64,000 nt of DNA from a virus (taxonomy: Duplodnaviria > Caudoviricetes). How positions within the stretch are numbered: position 1 is the stretch's first letter; each line of letters begins with the position of its first letter. This document shows, piece after piece, positions 3,790-12,881 of this stretch. The stretch is taken from positions 4,184 through 68,183 of the IMG/VR virus record IMGVR_UViG_3300032038_000069; one strand, written 5' to 3'. The notes beneath the pieces were generated by a model. The model was not told the DNA's origin. It was given only the letters and a program-made list of their open reading frames with translations, and did not search any database. The position numbers were made by a program, and so were the translations under genes.

Positions 3790-4833
3790 CTACGGCAGTT
3801 TGATGCACTCTATGGTATTGATACCTTCCAGGCTGATGCCATTGGGAACTTTTGGCCTCATGTTCAGGTATAACTGCAGCTCTTGGCCTATTTCGAAGGG
3901 GTCTCTTACTTCATTACCATCATCATCAATGAGAGTTCCCTTGCTTTTGGTGAGGGGGAATTTCCAAACCAATGGAGTGAGGGATTTTGGATTGACAATA
4001 ATGAATCTATAGTCCTCAAGAGTGAAGTCCTTGAAGTAAGGATCAGCTTCTATATTAGCCTTGATGAGTCTCCAATAAAGACGTGCCTGGATGTAATAGT
4101 GCCACTTCTTAAAGTTCTGCTGGAAGTCCCACTCAAGGCATCCTAGGCTTGTCTTCAAGTCAATGGGATAAATGACCTTCTTATCATAGTCTACTATCAG
4201 TTCATCGGCCATACAGCGGTAGCCTACTCCACCAAAACGAGCCTTAAACTTCAGCTGATAGTACCTGCGTATGGGAGATAACTCATCATCAGGAGCAAAA
4301 TAGCCACGGGTGGCAGGAGACTCACGGAGGGCATCGACACAGTTGAGTACATCATTATAGGTGTCACGGGAGATGATGGTCTTAGAACCTGCCTCATACT
4401 TCAGGCTATAGTACAGGGAGCATCTCTCAGTGACTACCCTGATACGAGTGTCATCCTTCCAGTTCTTCTGGAACTCAAAGGTGTTGGCAGCCTCCAGAAT
4501 ATAGGTAGCAGGGATGACATCCAGACGGACATAGTTGCTGCTGTAATTGTCGAACAGATGGTTGACTATCTGGAGCTCCTTGTCACCAATAGATGGGAAG
4601 TCAGCCACAAAGAAGAGATTGTTGAACTCCTCTTCCCCTCCTGTGATAATGGCATCCACACAAGAGCCAAGAGTAAGGGAAGGGCTCTCCTTACGGTCGA
4701 AGAGGTGGTCAAGACCATTGAATCCCAATGACTCATAGGTGGAAAGAGTGCTGTAGGACAGCTCTGGAAGCTGCCTATACTCAGGCTCGGAGATGGGCAG
4801 TGAGATGCTGCTTAACTCTTTTACTATCTGCAT
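3790..4833 (-). CDS. PD-(D/E)XK exonuclease-like protein
   Basis: LSYSTLS...LGSCVD N-terminus; RCMADEL...IDLKT nuclease core; YYIQARLY. Confidence 0.65.
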   Translation of the reverse strand: MQIVKELSSISLPISEPEYRQLPELSYSTLSTYESLGFNGLDHLFDRKESPSLTLGSCVDAIITGGEEEFNNLFFVADFPSIGDKELQIVNHLFDNYSSNYVRLDVIPATYILEAANTFEFQKNWKDDTRIRVVTERCSLYYSLKYEAGSKTIISRDTYNDVLNCVDALRESPATRGYFAPDDELSPIRRYYQLKFKARFGGVGYRCMADELIVDYDKKVIYPIDLKTSLGCLEWDFQQNFKKWHYYIQARLYWRLIKANIEADPYFKDFTLEDYRFIIVNPKSLTPLVWKFPLTKSKGTLIDDDGNEVRDPFEIGQELQLYLNMRPKVPNGISLEGINTIECIKLP

Positions 4834-6097: not shown

Positions 6098-6808
6098 CTA
6101 TTGTTCAGAATACCACTGTATGCCATACCCATTGAGGCCAATGAGGATACTGTTGATATCATGCCAGATGGATGATGGCATTCTGGAGTGGTTGCGGGCA
6201 TACCATGCAGGATGTTTGGTGCAGAGGACATGGTTGGACTGCTCGTTGATGCAATGTCTGAAGGACTGAGCCTGAGAGCCCATGAGCACATAGACAATGC
6301 CTACAGTATGCCTAGAGAGACTGGTAAGGAGACTACTGATGAATGGTCTCCACAGTAGGGAATGAGACCCTGGCTGCCCTGCAATACAGGAAAGTGCACT
6401 GTTAAGCAGCAGCACTCCCTGCTCTTCCCACTTCTCCAAACTCGGGTCAAAGTTAATGATTCCATGTGGAACTGTAAAATCAATAACAGAATCACTTAGG
6501 ACTGACAATGAGGGAGAAAAAGATGAGGAGGGAGTGGAGGGTCTGTTGGCAAAGGCAATGCCAGTTGCCACAGGAATGGAAGTGGTTGTGCCACAACCAG
6601 ATAGAGTTGGATAGGGGTCCTGACCAATAATAACCACCCGAAGACTGCTTAAGGGACAAAGATGGAAAGCCTTAAAAATATCTTTAATCTGAGGGCAGAT
6701 GATGAGGTTGTCACGGTGTGCCAACATACATAACCTCTGTATCAGGCTATCAGCTTCTTGGAGATTGATGACCTGTTGCCATGGGCCAAAGTACTCTTGG
6801 ATGGTCAT
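6098..6808 (-). CDS. ung: Uracil-DNA glycosylase, family 1
   Basis: VVIIGQDPY, GIAF, W..QGVLLLN, HPA motifs. Confidence 0.92.
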   Translation of the reverse strand: MTIQEYFGPWQQVINLQEADSLIQRLCMLAHRDNLIICPQIKDIFKAFHLCPLSSLRVVIIGQDPYPTLSGCGTTTSIPVATGIAFANRPSTPSSSFSPSLSVLSDSVIDFTVPHGIINFDPSLEKWEEQGVLLLNSALSCIAGQPGSHSLLWRPFISSLLTSLSRHTVGIVYVLMGSQAQSFRHCINEQSNHVLCTKHPAWYARNHSRMPSSIWHDINSILIGLNGYGIQWYSEQ

Positions 6809-7467
6809 AGGAGACTATCAGCCAACTGAAGCAGTTGCTCATTGGTGGTGTTGATAGATGGGGCATCTACTGCCCTGAATGTGAAAGGCATAGGGCCTAT
6901 CTCAGCAGTGGTAGCAGCATACGTCCTACTACCTCCTACGTAAGAGTAGGTGGACAGAGCAGTGGAGAGGAACTTTCCTGTGATGAACCGCTCCATGGAG
7001 TTGCTCTTATTGATGACTACATCGGGCAGTATGTGCAGGCAGGGACTCAGGAGCTTTATGCCTTGATTGTACTCTTGGTTTCTCTCCAGTTTCCATGAGA
7101 GGCACATGATTGGCAGAAAGTCGGAGTTGAAGACAAGCCCATCAGTGACATAATAGCTATCCTGCCCCACTTCCACCTTATAGAACTGGTCTTTAACAGT
7201 AGTTCTCAAAGCCTGTTTCATAGCTGCCTCAAGAGACTTGTAGGAAGTTGTATGTGTAGAAGGCTTGATGGAAATGATAAACTTATCTGTGTCGGCAGAA
7301 ATTTGACCATTCTTTATAAGTCTTACTATGCAGACTGGAAGCTCAGTAGGTCCATCTGGGAATGGTATTTCAATATAGTAAGGATAAGCCATGGTAGTGC
7401 TCTCATGTCCATTACAACCTAAATGACCAGTACCCAGAATCATATTAATACAGTCGTCCAGATTCAT
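6805..7467 (-). CDS. Hypothetical protein translationally coupled to the E1-like gene
   Basis: Start overlaps the E1 stop codon; 220 aa, no motif recognised. Confidence 0.65.
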   Translation of the reverse strand: MNLDDCINMILGTGHLGCNGHESTTMAYPYYIEIPFPDGPTELPVCIVRLIKNGQISADTDKFIISIKPSTHTTSYKSLEAAMKQALRTTVKDQFYKVEVGQDSYYVTDGLVFNSDFLPIMCLSWKLERNQEYNQGIKLLSPCLHILPDVVINKSNSMERFITGKFLSTALSTYSYVGGSRTYAATTAEIGPMPFTFRAVDAPSINTTNEQLLQLADSLL

Positions 7468-8732
7468 TACTTGATGGTTTTGAATAACATGTTCTGAGCA
7501 TCATACTCAGTGAAGAAAGGCAAGTCATAAGGAAGAACAGGGTCAAGCCTGTCAGCTACCCAGTTGGTGAGGAGATTGACTATGAAGGAGCTAATCATGC
7601 ATGCCATGTAGGTAGTTTGCTTCATGGAACAGACAGTCTCGTCAGCTTCAGAGTCATCAAAGAGAAACTCCTGTTCATACCTATTCATGTTGTAGGTATC
7701 ATCACCAGGGATGCAGAACACCTGGAGAGTGTCGATGCTTAACCTGCCATCAATGAAGACACAGTCCCTACGCTCTTCCTTAGGTTTCTGGCGAACATGC
7801 TGTTTCCAGCTCTGGAAGAATGTCTCTCTGGCAGTCATATTATCGAAGCCACATATCATGATGTCTCCAGCATCGGATGATGAAGTGAACCTAGAGGTGA
7901 TGGCATAGACATTACGAGTAGTAGTGAAATCAGAGATAAGGCTAGCCATAGCATCGGCCTTATGCTGCCCTACCTGATTTCTGCCATAGAACTGTCCAGA
8001 CTCATTGGCAGTCTCTACAGTATCATCATCATAGAGGCAGATAGTGGCAGGACACATACGAGCCAGCTGAAGGGCAGTCCAGCTACCGATACCCCCAAGT
8101 CCAGCAAGAATGATGCGAGACTGCTGGATGAGACTATACCACTCAGTGCCAGAGAATCTAGAGGTGGAATCATTGACAAGGAGGGTTGGAGAATTAAGAG
8201 GAATGAGAGATGGGTCGGAAGGTACTTGAGGCTGAGAGGGCTCTGAGGATTGCTGAGGCACAACAGGCTCTTCTGTTCTGGTAGAGTCAGCCTCGGTTAG
8301 TTCTCCAGACTCTATTCTCTCCATCCAATCAGCATCTTCTCTTGCATCCAGGCCTAACCCCTCTGCCATATTCTCCATTTGGTCTCTATCTATAATGAGA
8401 GTACCATCTCTGTATACACCATCATTTGTTACACTGTAAGTGACAGTATCTTGTATTTGAGCCTGAATACCGTCTCCAATATGTATAGGACCATCAGTAA
8501 TCTCCTCCTCTCCCCACTCCCCCTCGTCAGTTACCTCTTCAGGTTCCTGCATCTCAATGAAGTCATTGGACTCTAGAATATCATCAAAGTCAGAGTCAGT
8601 GAGCTGCTGAGTGGAAGGTTCAGATGGAGGAAGGTTAAGGTTGGAGACTACCTGCTCTACAGAAGTATTAGCAGAAGAAGTCTCAGAGGGCCCTACTCCT
8701 AATTCATTTAAAAAGCTATCTAAATCATCCAT
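7467..8732 (-). CDS. ThiF/E1-like activating enzyme with acidic N-terminal extension
   Basis: GLGGIGS, YDDDTVETAN, KADA, CGFDNMTAR, IDGRL; candidate catalytic Cys in CSMKQ. Confidence 0.88.
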   Translation of the reverse strand: MDDLDSFLNELGVGPSETSSANTSVEQVVSNLNLPPSEPSTQQLTDSDFDDILESNDFIEMQEPEEVTDEGEWGEEEITDGPIHIGDGIQAQIQDTVTYSVTNDGVYRDGTLIIDRDQMENMAEGLGLDAREDADWMERIESGELTEADSTRTEEPVVPQQSSEPSQPQVPSDPSLIPLNSPTLLVNDSTSRFSGTEWYSLIQQSRIILAGLGGIGSWTALQLARMCPATICLYDDDTVETANESGQFYGRNQVGQHKADAMASLISDFTTTRNVYAITSRFTSSSDAGDIMICGFDNMTARETFFQSWKQHVRQKPKEERRDCVFIDGRLSIDTLQVFCIPGDDTYNMNRYEQEFLFDDSEADETVCSMKQTTYMACMISSFIVNLLTNWVADRLDPVLPYDLPFFTEYDAQNMLFKTIK

Positions 8733-8737
8733 GATTA

Positions 8738-9925
8738 TTAACCATTAGCATAACGTAACAACATTGCACTATAGTAATGAATGTACTTGCTGAAGTCGTA
8801 GTACTTAGAGACCTCATCGTACATAGCTGAAGCAAGAGTGGAACGGTAGTAATCCCAATCTTCAAGTACCCATTCAGGAGTAGTAGGGTCGGAGAAATGG
8901 TTGAGCTGATACTCTACTATGAAATCCACCCAATCGTCAATAGCTAGTTCTCCCTCGGGGAATATGCGTTCATACATGGTGTTCATGTGGCGTTTAACCC
9001 ACTGAAGAAGGTCGAACTTATCACCCAAGATGAAGGAGCAGGCTAGCATTTGAGAGACAGCCCTATAGATGAGGTTAGGGTCTGGAGTCCAATCATCAGG
9101 AGTGATGCTCTTGGCATCATTTGGTTCGGAGAATAGTGGGAGTTCCTTGGTACTGCTTTTTAGCTCTTTATCCTTGCGCCAGCTATAGAAATCAAAGTCA
9201 TCAGAGTCCTTTGTATAGATATTGACAGGGGCTTTAGATGCCTCTTCCTGTTTCTTACGCTGGGCTATCTCATCGAAGCGAGTGTCCAAATAGTCAAGAG
9301 GATTATTCACAGTCTGGCGGTCAATATCCATCATGAAATACTCAATATAAGTATCCTTGACAGACTGTGGGTAGACATTGGAAGCAGGGTCAACTGAAGC
9401 TACAGTACCCTCACCGAAGAATTCATAAGAGGAGCCTAGGTTGCGGATTTCCTGCTCTGTCTGTATCTTACGGGTGACAGCAGCACAGTAAGTACCTGCA
9501 TTATTGACTATAAGAGACACAAAGCAGCTGGTATCATTGCCCTCTGACTGAAGAGTAGAAAGATCAGTGCCAGAGAAGAAGGCACTCATACTGTGATGTG
9601 AATGAATCAACCCTAAGTCACACTCGAAGAGGTCGATATTATTGGCAATATAGGCAGCTACATCTTCACTCATAGAGAACTGAGTGAAGGTGGCATTACC
9701 CAAGTCCATGGGATAGATGTCACGGCAGGTGATGGTCAGGTTGCCTTCCTCGAAAGAGCCTTCATGAGAATAGAATAGCACTCCAGACCATTCAGTGGAT
9801 GGAAACTTACGAAGCAAATACCTTATTTTCTCTTCTACTGAGGATGGGATGACCATCTTATAGACAGACTGTCCTTTGATGAGTCGTGGTAAGGGCTTGG
9901 GAGTCTGAGTTGATGTTGTGTTCAT
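8738..9925 (-). CDS. JAB/MPN+ metallo-isopeptidase
   Basis: EWSG glutamate and IHSHHSMSAFFSGTD (HxH...SxxD) JAMM motif. Confidence 0.9.
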   Translation of the reverse strand: MNTTSTQTPKPLPRLIKGQSVYKMVIPSSVEEKIRYLLRKFPSTEWSGVLFYSHEGSFEEGNLTITCRDIYPMDLGNATFTQFSMSEDVAAYIANNIDLFECDLGLIHSHHSMSAFFSGTDLSTLQSEGNDTSCFVSLIVNNAGTYCAAVTRKIQTEQEIRNLGSSYEFFGEGTVASVDPASNVYPQSVKDTYIEYFMMDIDRQTVNNPLDYLDTRFDEIAQRKKQEEASKAPVNIYTKDSDDFDFYSWRKDKELKSSTKELPLFSEPNDAKSITPDDWTPDPNLIYRAVSQMLACSFILGDKFDLLQWVKRHMNTMYERIFPEGELAIDDWVDFIVEYQLNHFSDPTTPEWVLEDWDYYRSTLASAMYDEVSKYYDFSKYIHYYSAMLLRYANG

Positions 9926-10994
9926 TTTTATACTTATAATTAATGGTTTGGGTAATATTGATGAGTATCTTCATGGCAATGGTTTTCTCCAAGATGGAGG
10001 TCTGAAGCATCTCACTATTATTGCTGGAAGAGGTGATGCGGAGGTGCACCTCCTGTCCCTTGAAGTGACATACCAAAGCTCCTTGATAGCCTTGGGCATA
10101 GTCATTGCTGAGCTGTGAAGAGCCTAGCTGGTAGAACTTACCATCAGAGGCAAAGACACGGAGGAGTATTCCATCGGTAAAGAGCCTATTGACTGCTGTC
10201 TGAGTAGACTTAAGCTGGGTGTTGTAGAACTCTATGAAAGCATTACTGATGTCAATCATAAAGTCGAAGAAAGACATAGCAGGCTGATAGATACCCTCTT
10301 GATACTTTAAAACCAAATGACCATGCTGTAGATACCAATGGGTGAACTCATTGAGAAGAGAATTGCCATTCTCAAGAGTAGTATTCTGGAACTGGCGAAG
10401 ACCACTGGAGTAGCCTCTGGAATACCCTCTTGAGGCAGAAGGATAATCCTCATACCCATAAAGACGGTCAGCTGCTCCTATGCGCTCAAGATACCTATAG
10501 GGAACACCAGTGATGGACTCTACCTGAACATACATGGACAATTCCTGACAGAAAAGCATCCACTTGGTTTCATCGGAATCCATCTTGAGAGAATTGATGG
10601 TCTGGATGATAGGCCCACGGCCTAAGCAAGGCAGCTGGAATGACTGGAAATGGCCTTTAGGGATGTCGCAGATATGAGAGTGCATATAGTTGGAATAGAA
10701 CTGGTCGGAAGTATAGGAGCCTCGGTTGAGGGTGAACCCACGGGACTCAAAGGGAATAGTGCCATCCAGTTCGAGGAGGACCTTGGCATAAAGGTCGGTG
10801 ATGAGTACAGAATTGTTGTGCTCATTAGTGACAGTAACCCTAGGCCACCATACCAGTATATAAGGTCGGCCATTATCCCTCTCAGTATCGCACTGGAGGT
10901 CAGTATGGCTCTCACCAAAGAAGTCAGAGAATACCTGATAGACCTGTTGGACATGCTGATAGTTGTCTCCACTTAAATTAGACAGTAAAGCCAT
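9858..10994 (-). CDS. Prokaryotic E2-like conjugating enzyme
   Basis: HSHI...PCLG motif like the HPH...CLG of prokaryotic E2 families; lies between Ubl and JAB. Confidence 0.72.
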   Translation of the reverse strand: MALLSNLSGDNYQHVQQVYQVFSDFFGESHTDLQCDTERDNGRPYILVWWPRVTVTNEHNNSVLITDLYAKVLLELDGTIPFESRGFTLNRGSYTSDQFYSNYMHSHICDIPKGHFQSFQLPCLGRGPIIQTINSLKMDSDETKWMLFCQELSMYVQVESITGVPYRYLERIGAADRLYGYEDYPSASRGYSRGYSSGLRQFQNTTLENGNSLLNEFTHWYLQHGHLVLKYQEGIYQPAMSFFDFMIDISNAFIEFYNTQLKSTQTAVNRLFTDGILLRVFASDGKFYQLGSSQLSNDYAQGYQGALVCHFKGQEVHLRITSSSNNSEMLQTSILEKTIAMKILINITQTINYKYKNEHNINSDSQALTTTHQRTVCL

Positions 10995-11022
10995 AGAGGT
11001 ATGGATAGTGAATTAAGGAAAT

Positions 11023-11060
11023 AAAAAAGAAAGGGTACAGGAGAAATTCTCCCATACCCT
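11023..11060 (-). terminator. Intrinsic terminator after the Ubl gene
   Basis: Minus strand AGGGTATGGGAG-AATTT-CTCCTGTACCCT followed by TTCTTTTTT. Confidence 0.75.
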
Positions 11061-11089
11061 CGGCAAAAGAAAAGCATGTGTGACTGTAC

Positions 11090-11767
11090 TTATAGACTAG
11101 CTATCATGCTGTTAAGCTCATCATCAGAGATATTGATGTGGCTGCCAACCTCTTTCATACGAGCTGCCAGTTCCTGAGTCATCTCGGCAATAGCCTCAAG
11201 GTCTGAAGGAGAGAGAATATTGATATTGGCCAGCAGTTTGATATGGTCATAGACAGAGATGACCATGCGCTGGGCAGGAGTAGCCTCAGGAAGAGGCTCA
11301 TTATCAGACTCCTCAGGCTCAACAGGAACATCTACCAAAGGCTCATCAGAAGTGCTTGTGTTAGCATCAATGAAAGCCCAGAGGGCAGCAGTAGGCACCT
11401 GAGTGTAGTTGCGGCCATACTCAGCCTTGATGGTCTCCATGATGTCACGGCCCAAACCTTTGATGACCTCATAAGCCTCCTTGCGGCCCCTGGTCTCAGC
11501 ACCAGAGGCAATATTCTTGGAGGTATTGGTGAGGAGGAATACCAAGTTGTTGGTGGGTACTCCACGGTACATGACATTCTGAGGAAGGAGGCTGTCACGG
11601 CCAATCAGTTTGGTCTTGGTGATGCCCTCTGTGAATTCCATACCACTGAAGTCAATGCCATGAGCAGTCATAGCATCCTGAAGCTCACCAAGAGTGGTAG
11701 CAGTGGTCATGAACTTGTACTTCTTCTGAGTTTTGGTGTCGGCGATAAGAATTTCTCTGTTTTCCAT
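11090..11767 (-). CDS. Ubiquitin-like (beta-grasp) domain protein with C-terminal helical extension
   Basis: N-terminal ~89 aa with pattern ATTLGELQ..M...GIDF..M.F.EG...L.....LP, ending KNIASG; first gene of the E2/JAB/E1 cassette. Fold is inferred. Confidence 0.68.
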   Translation of the reverse strand: MENREILIADTKTQKKYKFMTTATTLGELQDAMTAHGIDFSGMEFTEGITKTKLIGRDSLLPQNVMYRGVPTNNLVFLLTNTSKNIASGAETRGRKEAYEVIKGLGRDIMETIKAEYGRNYTQVPTAALWAFIDANTSTSDEPLVDVPVEPEESDNEPLPEATPAQRMVISVYDHIKLLANINILSPSDLEAIAEMTQELAARMKEVGSHINISDDELNSMIASL

Positions 11768-11838: not shown

Positions 11839-12843
11839 CTATGGGAAGAGTGACTTGAGTTGCTGGAACTGGGACTTATCAGTAAGGGACTTGTAATAGT
11901 CACTATAGTCCTTACAGGAACCAAGGTCGGGAAGGACCATTTGGAAGCCAGTCTCAGCCGAGAGTTTACGGGCATCTGCAATGCCTGGAGAGTCAGCATC
12001 GAAGGATATATAGATGTGCTTATACCTTCGTTTGAGTTCTTGGATGGCTGTTGTGGACATACTATAGCCCTCACCCTGAAGGCATAGGGCAGGAATATGA
12101 AGCTGGCAGGAGATGCAAAGGGCATCCTTGAGAGATGAACAGATAATCACCTTTTCTCCCTGCTGAGGAATCTTAGTCCAGAGACCAATGACAGAACCAT
12201 CCATTTTGGAACACCACTTAAAGCCTTTGGTGTTGTAGGGTTGGTAGATTTTAAGTTGAAGATTGCCTTCTTTCCTTTCAAGGAAACAATAAGCAAATTT
12301 ATCGGCAGGAAAAATGTACTGACGAGTGGAATTATCAACCTTTTTAGTGATAATCTTATGGGAGATAGGATGAATATCAGCATAGTGGAGCCATTTGTGC
12401 TCAATACCATAGGAAGCCCAATACTCATAGTCATAATCATGCCATGGGCGGACAGTCACCTGAACCTTAGACTGCTCATTGGCCTCCTTACGGGTAAGGA
12501 CTCTCATCTGTTTGGGTTTGATGGTGAGCTCCTGACTATTTTCTTTCTGCATAAGGTCAATAATCTTATCGAATACTTGATGGAAAGAACACTTCCATAG
12601 CAGACACAGGAAATCAAGGATATTGCCTTGAGTATCAGCCTCCCCGAAGTCCTTGAAGCGGATGTGCTGGTTATTGTCCATATAGATGCTGAAAGAAGGA
12701 TGACTATCCTTTCGGAATGGACTATTGATACGACATGGTATGGAGGTAATCTGAGGGAAGGCAGCCTTGAGTACCTCTACCTCAGAGTAGCGTTGGAACA
12801 GCTCAGTCTTACTGATGCTGGTAGATGTCTTGCCTATGACCAT
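11839..12843 (-). CDS. DNA primase (DnaG-like)
   Basis: SPFRKDSHPSF Zn-finger-like region, SSLKD and FDADSPG Toprim motifs; start placed at MVIGK. Confidence 0.85.
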   Translation of the reverse strand: MVIGKTSTSISKTELFQRYSEVEVLKAAFPQITSIPCRINSPFRKDSHPSFSIYMDNNQHIRFKDFGEADTQGNILDFLCLLWKCSFHQVFDKIIDLMQKENSQELTIKPKQMRVLTRKEANEQSKVQVTVRPWHDYDYEYWASYGIEHKWLHYADIHPISHKIITKKVDNSTRQYIFPADKFAYCFLERKEGNLQLKIYQPYNTKGFKWCSKMDGSVIGLWTKIPQQGEKVIICSSLKDALCISCQLHIPALCLQGEGYSMSTTAIQELKRRYKHIYISFDADSPGIADARKLSAETGFQMVLPDLGSCKDYSDYYKSLTDKSQFQQLKSLFP

Positions 12844-12881
12844 AAGAATTATCACTTAAAAAGGGTTAATGAAGATGGGAA

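Follow-up and report, generated by a model that had tools for sequence, protein, structure and literature searches.

A probable ubiquitin-like protein activation and conjugation cassette in the replication module of crAss-like phages

The 64,000-nucleotide stretch of IMG/VR record IMGVR_UViG_3300032038_000069 analysed here (positions 4,184 to 68,183 of that record, hereafter the window) belongs to a crAss-like phage whose closest named relatives are Steigviridae (crAss001, DAC15/17 and Kolpuevirus; 33–54% protein identity). Beside its primase gene it carries a cassette encoding a ubiquitin-like protein (Ubl), a protein resembling the E2 class of conjugating enzymes, a JAB-type JAMM peptidase and a ThiF-type E1 activating enzyme. 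On balance, this cassette probably constitutes a phage-encoded pathway of Ubl activation and conjugation, made in the middle (replication) phase of infection. Within it the assignments of the Ubl, the JAB peptidase and the E1 are solid, and that of the E2, drawn from fold and motif, is probable. An earlier note on this DNA had described four consecutive co-oriented genes between the primase gene and ung: all four open reading frames (ORFs) occupy the coordinates it gave and both flanks were correctly named, but a fifth gene, here termed g5, sits between the E1 gene and ung. The motifs it quoted (KNIASG, HSH...PCLG, the JAMM residues, and the ThiF glycine loop with its Cys) were all found in the translations. 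Because the motif residues of all four proteins are invariant or nearly so across relatives, and because the E2-like family by itself comprises 2,488 clusters at 50% identity, the four-gene observation lies far beyond chance.

In the pathway proposed here, the Ubl would be translated as a 225-residue precursor, which the JAMM peptidase would cut after Gly89 to yield a ~9.7-kDa beta-grasp protein ending ...I-A-S-G. A homodimer-type single-domain E1 (cf. UBA5, ThiF and BubCD) would adenylate Gly89 with ATP, hold the Ubl on Cys368 as a thioester, and hand it to Cys123 of a new, highly diverged UBC-fold protein in which Y-x-H-S-H would take the role of the E2 'HPN'. Target lysines might be chosen by the C-terminal domain of the E2-like protein or by g5, and the JAMM peptidase may also take tags off. 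The cleavage site, both thioesters, the E2 activity and proteins as targets are features that we infer. That the cassette forms a self-contained E1-to-E2 thioester cascade with a previously unrecognised E2 family, tagging host or phage proteins in the replication phase, is a tentative proposal that we hold to fall just short of probable. The suggestion, also made by the earlier note, that it tags host defence or replication proteins, or strips tags applied by the host, is speculation.

The ubiquitin-like precursor, its peptidase and the activating enzyme

The pro-Ubl ORF (11090-11767, minus strand; 225 residues) opens with a Ubl domain of residues 1-89 (11501..11767, minus strand), delimited by an AlphaFold2 model, Foldseek matches and a conserved tail, K84-N-I-A-S88-G89, in which the codon of G89 is 11501-11503. 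These 89 residues are the best-conserved part of the protein. The K84-x-I86-x-S88-G89 tail that closes them is invariant in an alignment of 37 relatives, and K84, S88 and G89 are also kept in crAss001, Dulem virus 41 and Flavobacterium phage FpV4, at 28-36% identity. Modelled with AlphaFold2 on the family alignment, residues 1-83 form a beta-grasp of topology b-b-a-b-b-b (strands 4-10, 15-21, 43-47 and 75-81; helix 26-35), with blockwise predicted local distance difference test (pLDDT) values of 85-92 over residues 1-80; S88-G89 sits in a flexible low-pLDDT tail (84-91), where the Gly is internal in the precursor. Searched against the PDB with Foldseek, the model matched UBX, ISG15, ubiquitin, SUMO and Hub1 (E 5e-4 to 5e-3, probability 1.0), and ThiS and MoaD were absent from the best 50 rows. 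The beta-grasp that had been read into the N-terminus of 11090..11767 is borne out by the model and by its matches to ubiquitin-type folds, and the reading of the 225-residue protein as a Ubl domain made as a precursor is solid at the level of a predicted structure. The Gly that is the candidate for conjugation is internal and would need cleavage to be exposed.

The remainder of the precursor, residues 90-225 with the stop codon (11090..11500, minus strand), appears in alignment and model as a helical extension with an acidic linker and a conserved acidic/hydrophobic tip, the helices being broken by an acidic disordered stretch at 139-158. The extension is always present in relatives but varies in length and sequence and is far less conserved than the Ubl domain, with R95, Y99, N120, T122 and L129 as its conserved positions; the JAB peptidase is presumed to remove it by cleavage after G89. 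One might suppose instead that the released C-terminal part is the functional product (a replication accessory factor, for example), that the Ubl is a cleavable N-terminal chaperone, as in the eukaryotic fusions of ubiquitin to ribosomal proteins, and that the E1 and the E2-like protein serve some other substrate. Such an arrangement would fit the constant presence of the extension, its conserved positions and tip, and the position of the gene next to the primase gene; it sits badly with an extension so much less conserved than the Ubl domain and so variable in length, it assigns no role to the E1 and the E2-like protein, and we consider it extremely unlikely. The tip itself (11090-11200, the last ~35 residues) has the consensus I-S-D-x-D-I-D-D-M-I-A-x-L across relatives, which may resemble the C-terminal tips of SSB that recruit replication enzymes.

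The JAB ORF (8738-9925, minus strand; 395 residues) shares 68 nucleotides with the E2-like ORF, and an alternative start at Met24 lies 1 nucleotide past the E2-like stop. Pfam, alignment and profile searches identify its product (8738..9925, minus strand) as a JAMM/MPN+ metallopeptidase with the motif within residues ~25-165; its last 230 residues received no assignment. PF14464 (Prok-JAB) is matched at 2e-5 and 24.9 bits, just below the 25-bit cut-off. The JAMM residues E45, H108-x-H110, S118 and D121 (E ... H-x-H-x7-S-x2-D) are all present and are kept across 20-30 relatives, and when PDB sequences were searched with a family profile, CSN5, archaeal JAMM1 and an Rpn11-like protein aligned with it over the HxH...S..D block. 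CSN5, JAMM1 and Rpn11-type enzymes all cleave after the C-terminal Gly of a Ubl. With every motif residue present and conserved, and with these matches, the intact JAMM motif previously claimed holds, and identification of the protein as a JAMM peptidase is well supported by sequence comparison. In one relative (locus L019:8127-11369, IMGVR_UViG_3300013936_000025) the JAB gene is split inside the catalytic H-x-H: exon 1 ends ...ALVH and exon 2 restarts with SHHNLGAFLSSQD ~1.9 kb on, the insert holding two LAGLIDADG endonuclease ORFs (PF03161, 7e-34) and a match to a group I intron at 8434-8646 (RF00028, E 9e-9, at 41.9 bits under the gathering score of 50). Locus L023 has the same layout.

The E1 ORF (7467-8732, minus strand; 421 residues) encodes an E1-type adenylation domain at residues 186-421 (7470..8177, minus strand), recognised by PF00899, PADLOC and a PDB profile search, behind an acidic and variable N-terminal extension of residues 1-185 (8178..8732, minus strand), where the alignment is rich in gaps. 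The match to PF00899 (ThiF) reaches 1.5e-17 and 64 bits against a cut-off of 28.1. PADLOC models for the Cap2 'E1-E2' protein match at ~1e-9 and that for BilD, from the bacterial ISG15-like (Bil) system, at 1.7e-7, and the family profile retrieves PaaA, UBA5, MccB, TcdA, ThiF, UBA7/UBA1, BubCD and Cap2 from the PDB. R192, the glycine loop G211-x-G-G-I-G-S217 (GLGGIGS in the window), D235, D237, K258, D297 and R302 are invariant. So too is C368 (7629-7631), within D-E-T-V-C-S-M-K-Q, in 18 of 18 sequences including those of FpV4 and Dulem virus; its position is behind the variable segment downstream of the D-G-R-L strand and immediately ahead of a long C-terminal helix-like stretch. In UBA5 the catalytic C250 is found near the C-terminal end of the crossover loop (PMC11601596), and C368 would by its position be the catalytic Cys of the phage enzyme. 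The ThiF/E1 ATP-binding domain with a candidate Cys that the earlier note had proposed finds support in each of these features, and the protein's identity as a ThiF/UBA5-type E1 is well supported at the level of sequence. It contains one ThiF domain only, residues 1-185 not being an inactive adenylation domain, and because of this single adenylation domain the enzyme is placed with the homodimeric UBA5/ThiF/BubCD kind rather than with the pseudo-dimeric BilD and eukaryotic kind. The extension is poorly conserved and is absent from the 228-residue E1 of FpV4 and the 235-residue E1 of Dulem virus. In the window it is unusually long, with an insert of ~50 residues (about 78-128) that has no counterpart in aligned relatives.

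A phage might also carry such proteins for counter-defence by interference: the JAB would strip Ubl or cGAS-type conjugates made by host systems resembling Bil or the cyclic oligonucleotide-based anti-phage signalling system (CBASS), and the Ubl, E1 and E2-like protein would be decoys titrating host enzymes. Bil systems attach tags to the tail proteins of phages, and JAB enzymes can take tags of this kind off again (PMC11601596), and the active site of the phage JAB is intact. A decoy, however, needs neither intact adenylation residues nor an invariant Cys in the E1 or in the E2-like protein, and the phage's own Ubl precursor gives the JAB a substrate inside the cassette; we regard interference as very unlikely.

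The E2-like protein

The transfer step proposed here would fall to the product of the E2-like ORF (9858-10994, minus strand; 378 residues). Its N-terminal domain, residues 1-175 (10470..10994, minus strand), is UBC/UEV-like according to a structural model, VIA-align and the family alignment, and carries Y103-x-H105-S106-H107 and C123-x-G125, with the HSH codons at 10674-10682 and C123 of PCLG at 10626-10628. Across 60 divergent family members, and also in FpV4 and Dulem virus at 19-22% identity, none of Y103, H105, S106, H107, C123 and G125 varies; downstream of C123, conservation takes in G125, G127, P128 and I129. The Y-x-H-S-H block, we presume, corresponds to the aromatic-H-P-N-I motif of E2s, which it resembles. 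The model of the domain (pLDDT 84) is laid out as a helix, a four-stranded sheet, a long loop and helices (helix 10-26; strands 44-56, 62-73 and 88-95; loop 101-127; helices 128-138 and 142-155). The 27-residue loop 101-127 is confidently modelled, and C123 lies within it, five residues before helix 128-138 (helix 2). A zinc site of HxH-C-C type was considered for this protein and rejected, C149 being missing in FpV4 and Dulem virus.

An exhaustive structural search with VIA-align covered 48,161 chains. High in the list of its first pass stood the Tsg101 UEV with Z 5.9, followed by an E2 from Leishmania (Z 5.2), the E2 domain of Cap2 (Z 5.0, with 122 residues aligned, 10-164 of the E2-like protein on 7-157) and BubB (Z 4.6); a second look gave the Tsg101 UEV at Z 6.3 (126/139 residues aligned, root-mean-square deviation 3.7) and UbcH8 at Z 5.7. 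Judged from entry titles, UBC, UEV or RWD proteins make up ~39 of the best 50 rows. Foldseek against the PDB gave no match at E <= 0.001, its weak list consisting mostly of E2s and UEVs. Values of Z < 8 are, by the tool's own caution, frequent among models that have no match, and the fold is taken as UBC-like not because of Z but because one superfamily dominates the list and 85-90% of the target domain is covered. By fold and motif the N-terminal domain thus appears UBC/UEV-like, with Z values (5-6.3) that are modest. The E2 assignment of the earlier note, made from HSH...PCLG, stands in part: the motif is present and invariant and its domain is modelled as UBC/UEV-like, but no sequence link to any E2 family appeared in Pfam, PADLOC or the PDB, and Z is modest.

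The C-terminal domain, residues 176-378 (9858..10469, minus strand), is of alpha/beta type and is marked by conserved positions (S250, N251, F253, I254, N258, F311, K312 and N352); neither the protein scan nor the Pfam scan of 41 members gave it a family match. Because the E2 of Bil has itself been proposed to select targets (PMC11601596), this half of the protein is a possible candidate for the target-recognition part. Most relatives of the E2-like protein hold an insert of 35-50 residues after residue ~36 that the window protein is without, and PF25565 ('ubiquitin-like domain') matches 4 of 41 members weakly (best 7e-4), at a position that was not located in the ten members tried. The ESM Atlas gave no usable match for the E2-like domain, its own models being poor.

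Several observations weigh against a pathway of activation and conjugation. For the E2-like protein, structural Z values of at most 6.3 fall within the range common for models without a clear match, the top structural match is Tsg101 UEV, a non-catalytic domain, and the protein falls in no Pfam, PADLOC or PHROG family: UQ_con and Prok-E2 were not among the Pfam matches of 41 members at E up to 10, and profiles of 41 and of 60 members found no E2 among PDB sequences. C123 is suggested as the counterpart of the E2 catalytic Cys by topology and motif. S106-H107 is likewise invariant and Bub E2s use Ser-His, so the nucleophile could be Ser and the route an oxyester through S106-H107 instead of a C123 thioester. 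On the side of the E1, the catalytic role of C368 is suggested by position, a profile of the C-terminal 110 residues found nothing in the PDB and gave no alignment of C368 with UBA5 C250, and the best sequence matches count among them PaaA, MccB and TcdA, whose substrates for adenylation are peptides or tRNA and not Ubls. The Ubl tail is S-G rather than G-G, and no E3 and no target are known. A complex prediction for two E1 cores with Ubl(1-89) and E2-like(1-178) scored 0.00; run without controls, it is evidence neither way.

Some of these points would be expected if the Ubl were trimmed and activated without any E2 step, either as a sulfur carrier (ThiS, MoaD, TtuB, Urm1, or QbsE with the JAB QbsD) or by E1-only attachment as with archaeal SAMPs, the UBC/UEV-like protein then being a non-catalytic Ubl binder or having an unrelated activity. 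Trimming of sulfur carriers by JAB enzymes is well established, the E1 consists of a minimal ThiF/MoeB/UBA5-type domain, and the E2-like protein has no sequence homology to active E2s and finds its best structural match in a non-catalytic ubiquitin binder. Against this, the 50 best rows for the Ubl model hold ubiquitin, ISG15 and SUMO, not ThiS or MoaD; its tail is S-G where G-G is typical of sulfur carriers; the nine neighbouring proteins scanned include no rhodanese, cysteine desulfurase or PP-loop thiolase; and an invariant Cys flanked by H-S-H and G, retained at 19-22% identity, is not what one expects of a non-catalytic adaptor. A route without an E2 is, in our assessment, unlikely.

Gene order, expression and distribution

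The order primase-Ubl-E2-like-JAB-E1-g5-UDG is found in 32/32 IMG/VR loci as far as their contigs reach. The synteny survey that the earlier note had proposed thereby shows a cassette order that is constant across these loci and in cultured phages. The flanks in the window are a DnaG-type primase gene upstream (11839-12855; phrog_12622, 1e-41) and a gene for uracil-DNA glycosylase (UDG, ung) downstream (6098-6808; PF03167, 3e-12). Across the 32 loci the enzyme genes overlap or abut, and all four ORFs remain separate throughout. In crAss001 the order appears as Gp80-Gp74, with the cassette at Gp79-Gp76, of which Gp77 is named 'metalloprotease' and Gp76 'ThiF'; Kolpuevirus and Dulem virus share the cassette order, and in Flavobacterium phage FpV4 all five genes keep this order, with ung relocated upstream.

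The fifth conserved and co-oriented gene, g5 (6805-7467, minus strand; 220 residues), has a start that overlaps the E1 stop. It follows E1 in 27/27 IMG/VR loci with a contig extending to this point, at 22-37% identity, with P44, Y105, Y106 and G110 invariant. It has no PHROG family and no Pfam match at E <= 0.1 except a sub-threshold DUF2969, its alignment contains no invariant Ser or His, and the ESM Atlas, whose models were again poor, gave no usable match.

The cassette's only real intergenic gap follows the Ubl gene, and here, before the E2-like gene, lies a terminator-like hairpin (11021..11061, minus strand) with a 14-bp stem and a T run, folding at -21.1 kcal/mol (z -4.2). crAss001, Kolpuevirus and at least 12 IMG/VR relatives have counterparts of this hairpin at the corresponding site, their stems differing in sequence. 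We infer that such a hairpin would make the tag more abundant than the enzymes. Just past the Ubl stop and before the hairpin, a conserved sequence of ~25 nucleotides, ACATAACTGTTTGGCATTTAGTTGTG or close variants, occurs in loci L003, L004, L009, L011, L026, L032 and others; it is absent from the window, and in the relatives could be a regulatory or promoter element. Strand-specific RNA sequencing of crAss001 places the replication module among the middle genes, on at 10-30 min post infection (PMC8375218), and these data together with synteny suggest that the cassette would be expressed with the replication genes.

A scan of 185,579 species genomes for the E2-like gene, of limited reach, found only three phage-type contigs in bins of metagenome-assembled genomes (MAGs) and no cellular counterpart. 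These three cassette-bearing crAss-like contigs, L037 and L039 (CAAGQJ01 contigs of 111 kb and 89 kb) and L038, are binned in MAGs labelled 'Bacilli bacterium' and 'Agathobacter sp.', a placement that is probably a binning artefact and not a host signal.

Relation to known systems and significance

Bacterial ubiquitin-like conjugation has so far been viewed as anti-phage defence (Bil, type II CBASS and probably Bub), and to our knowledge Ubl tagging kits of such a kind have so far been studied only in cells. In its order of functions, presumed precursor processing and single-domain E1 the phage cassette is most like Type I Bub; in its separate genes and its cysteines it is more like Bil; and it belongs to neither. 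Type I Bub (formerly 6E.1) operons encode BubAB, BubCD and BubE (Ye et al. 2024, PMC11601596), so that Ubl, E2, JAB, E1 and a fifth protein follow in the same functional order as in the phage, the Ubl carries a C-terminal appendage requiring removal by the JAB, the E1 has one adenylation domain of homodimeric UBA5/ThiF type with no inserted CYS domain, and the E2 is a diverged UBC fold; BubCD and BubB are among the PDB matches of the phage proteins. Bub has Ubl-E2 and JAB-E1 fusions where the phage genes are separate, and its Ubl appendage is the E2 where that of the phage is a helical extension. Its E1 and E2 are free of Cys and use Tyr and Ser oxyesters (PMC11601596), whereas the phage keeps an invariant C368 and C123. 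In the Pfam scan g5 had no match to DUF6527, the BubE serine protease, and Bub resides on a bacterial mobile island, the phage cassette in a virulent-type phage. It is therefore not Bub, because it has no gene fusions, keeps its cysteines and has no BubE.

Bil (BilA-BilB-BilC-BilD; Chambers et al., PMC10557695) likewise consists of four separate genes in the order Ubl, E2, JAB and E1, with no E3; its JAB exposes the C-terminal Gly of the Ubl and its chemistry is cysteine-based, as is proposed for the phage. The BilD model matches the phage E1 weakly (1.7e-7). However, BilD combines inactive and active adenylation domains (IAD and AAD) with a ~80-residue CYS insertion (PMC10557695), and the phage E1 core of ~235 residues has neither. 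BilB has C-E-H-H after its Cys (PMC10557695), where in the phage protein H-S-H precedes the Cys and C123 is followed by no E/H/H pattern. BilA undergoes a short trim only, whereas the phage Ubl would lose ~135 residues, and Bil protects bacteria from phages where here a phage owns the system. Because its E1 is without the IAD-AAD-CYS architecture and its E2-like protein without C-E-H-H, the cassette is not Bil. Type II CBASS also joins E1 and E2 domains to a JAB peptidase in Cap2/Cap3, and Cap2 supplies both the best PADLOC matches of the phage E1 (~1e-9) and an E2 domain that aligns with the E2-like domain (Z 5.0); but Cap2 is a single E2-E1 fusion that acts without a Ubl and conjugates the CD-NTase itself, and the phage cassette has no cyclase or effector.

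Outside defence systems, UBA5-UFC1-UFM1 shares with the cassette a minimal homodimeric E1, whose catalytic Cys at the end of the crossover loop has a candidate counterpart in C368, and SAMP/UbaA/JAMM1 shares the JAMM1-type Ubl maturation proposed for the phage; the sequence matches include UBA5, ThiF and JAMM1. Processing of UFM1 depends on cysteine proteases and not on a JAMM enzyme, SAMP and ThiF-ThiS are without an E2, and none of UBA5-UFC1-UFM1, SAMP and ThiF-ThiS is viral. From ThiS/MoaD with ThiF/MoeB the cassette further differs in its S-G tail and in the lack of a sulfur-transfer enzyme among the nine neighbouring proteins scanned.

A literature search found no description of the cassette in crAss-like phages. 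It is missing from the catalogue of conserved crAss genes of Yutin 2021, and a 2026 preprint says of a gut-phage protein family, in a passing remark only, that it resembles UBA5. The caution of the earlier note over prior description was apt: relatives are annotated gene by gene in GenBank ('ThiF', 'metalloprotease', 'E1 enzyme family protein'). In crAss001 the 'Thiamine biosynthesis protein' would be better named an E1 and the 'metalloprotease' a JAMM Ubl peptidase, and two adjacent 'hypothetical proteins' are better read as the Ubl and the E2-like protein.

The cassette is present in thousands of genomes of crAss-like phages, a group that ranks with the most abundant human gut viruses, and its cultured carriers (crAss001, DAC15/17, Kolpuevirus and FpV4) make it directly testable. 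It would add to the known repertoire an E2-like family not seen before, a pro-Ubl whose long extension can be removed and, possibly, a phage strategy of protein tagging, and it sets the logic of an anti-phage system inside a phage, fixed beside the primase gene. If the proposed cascade is true, it would make crAss-like phages the first bacterial viruses with a complete ubiquitin-like conjugation system of their own, and might serve to disable host defences or to control the replisome whose genes surround it.

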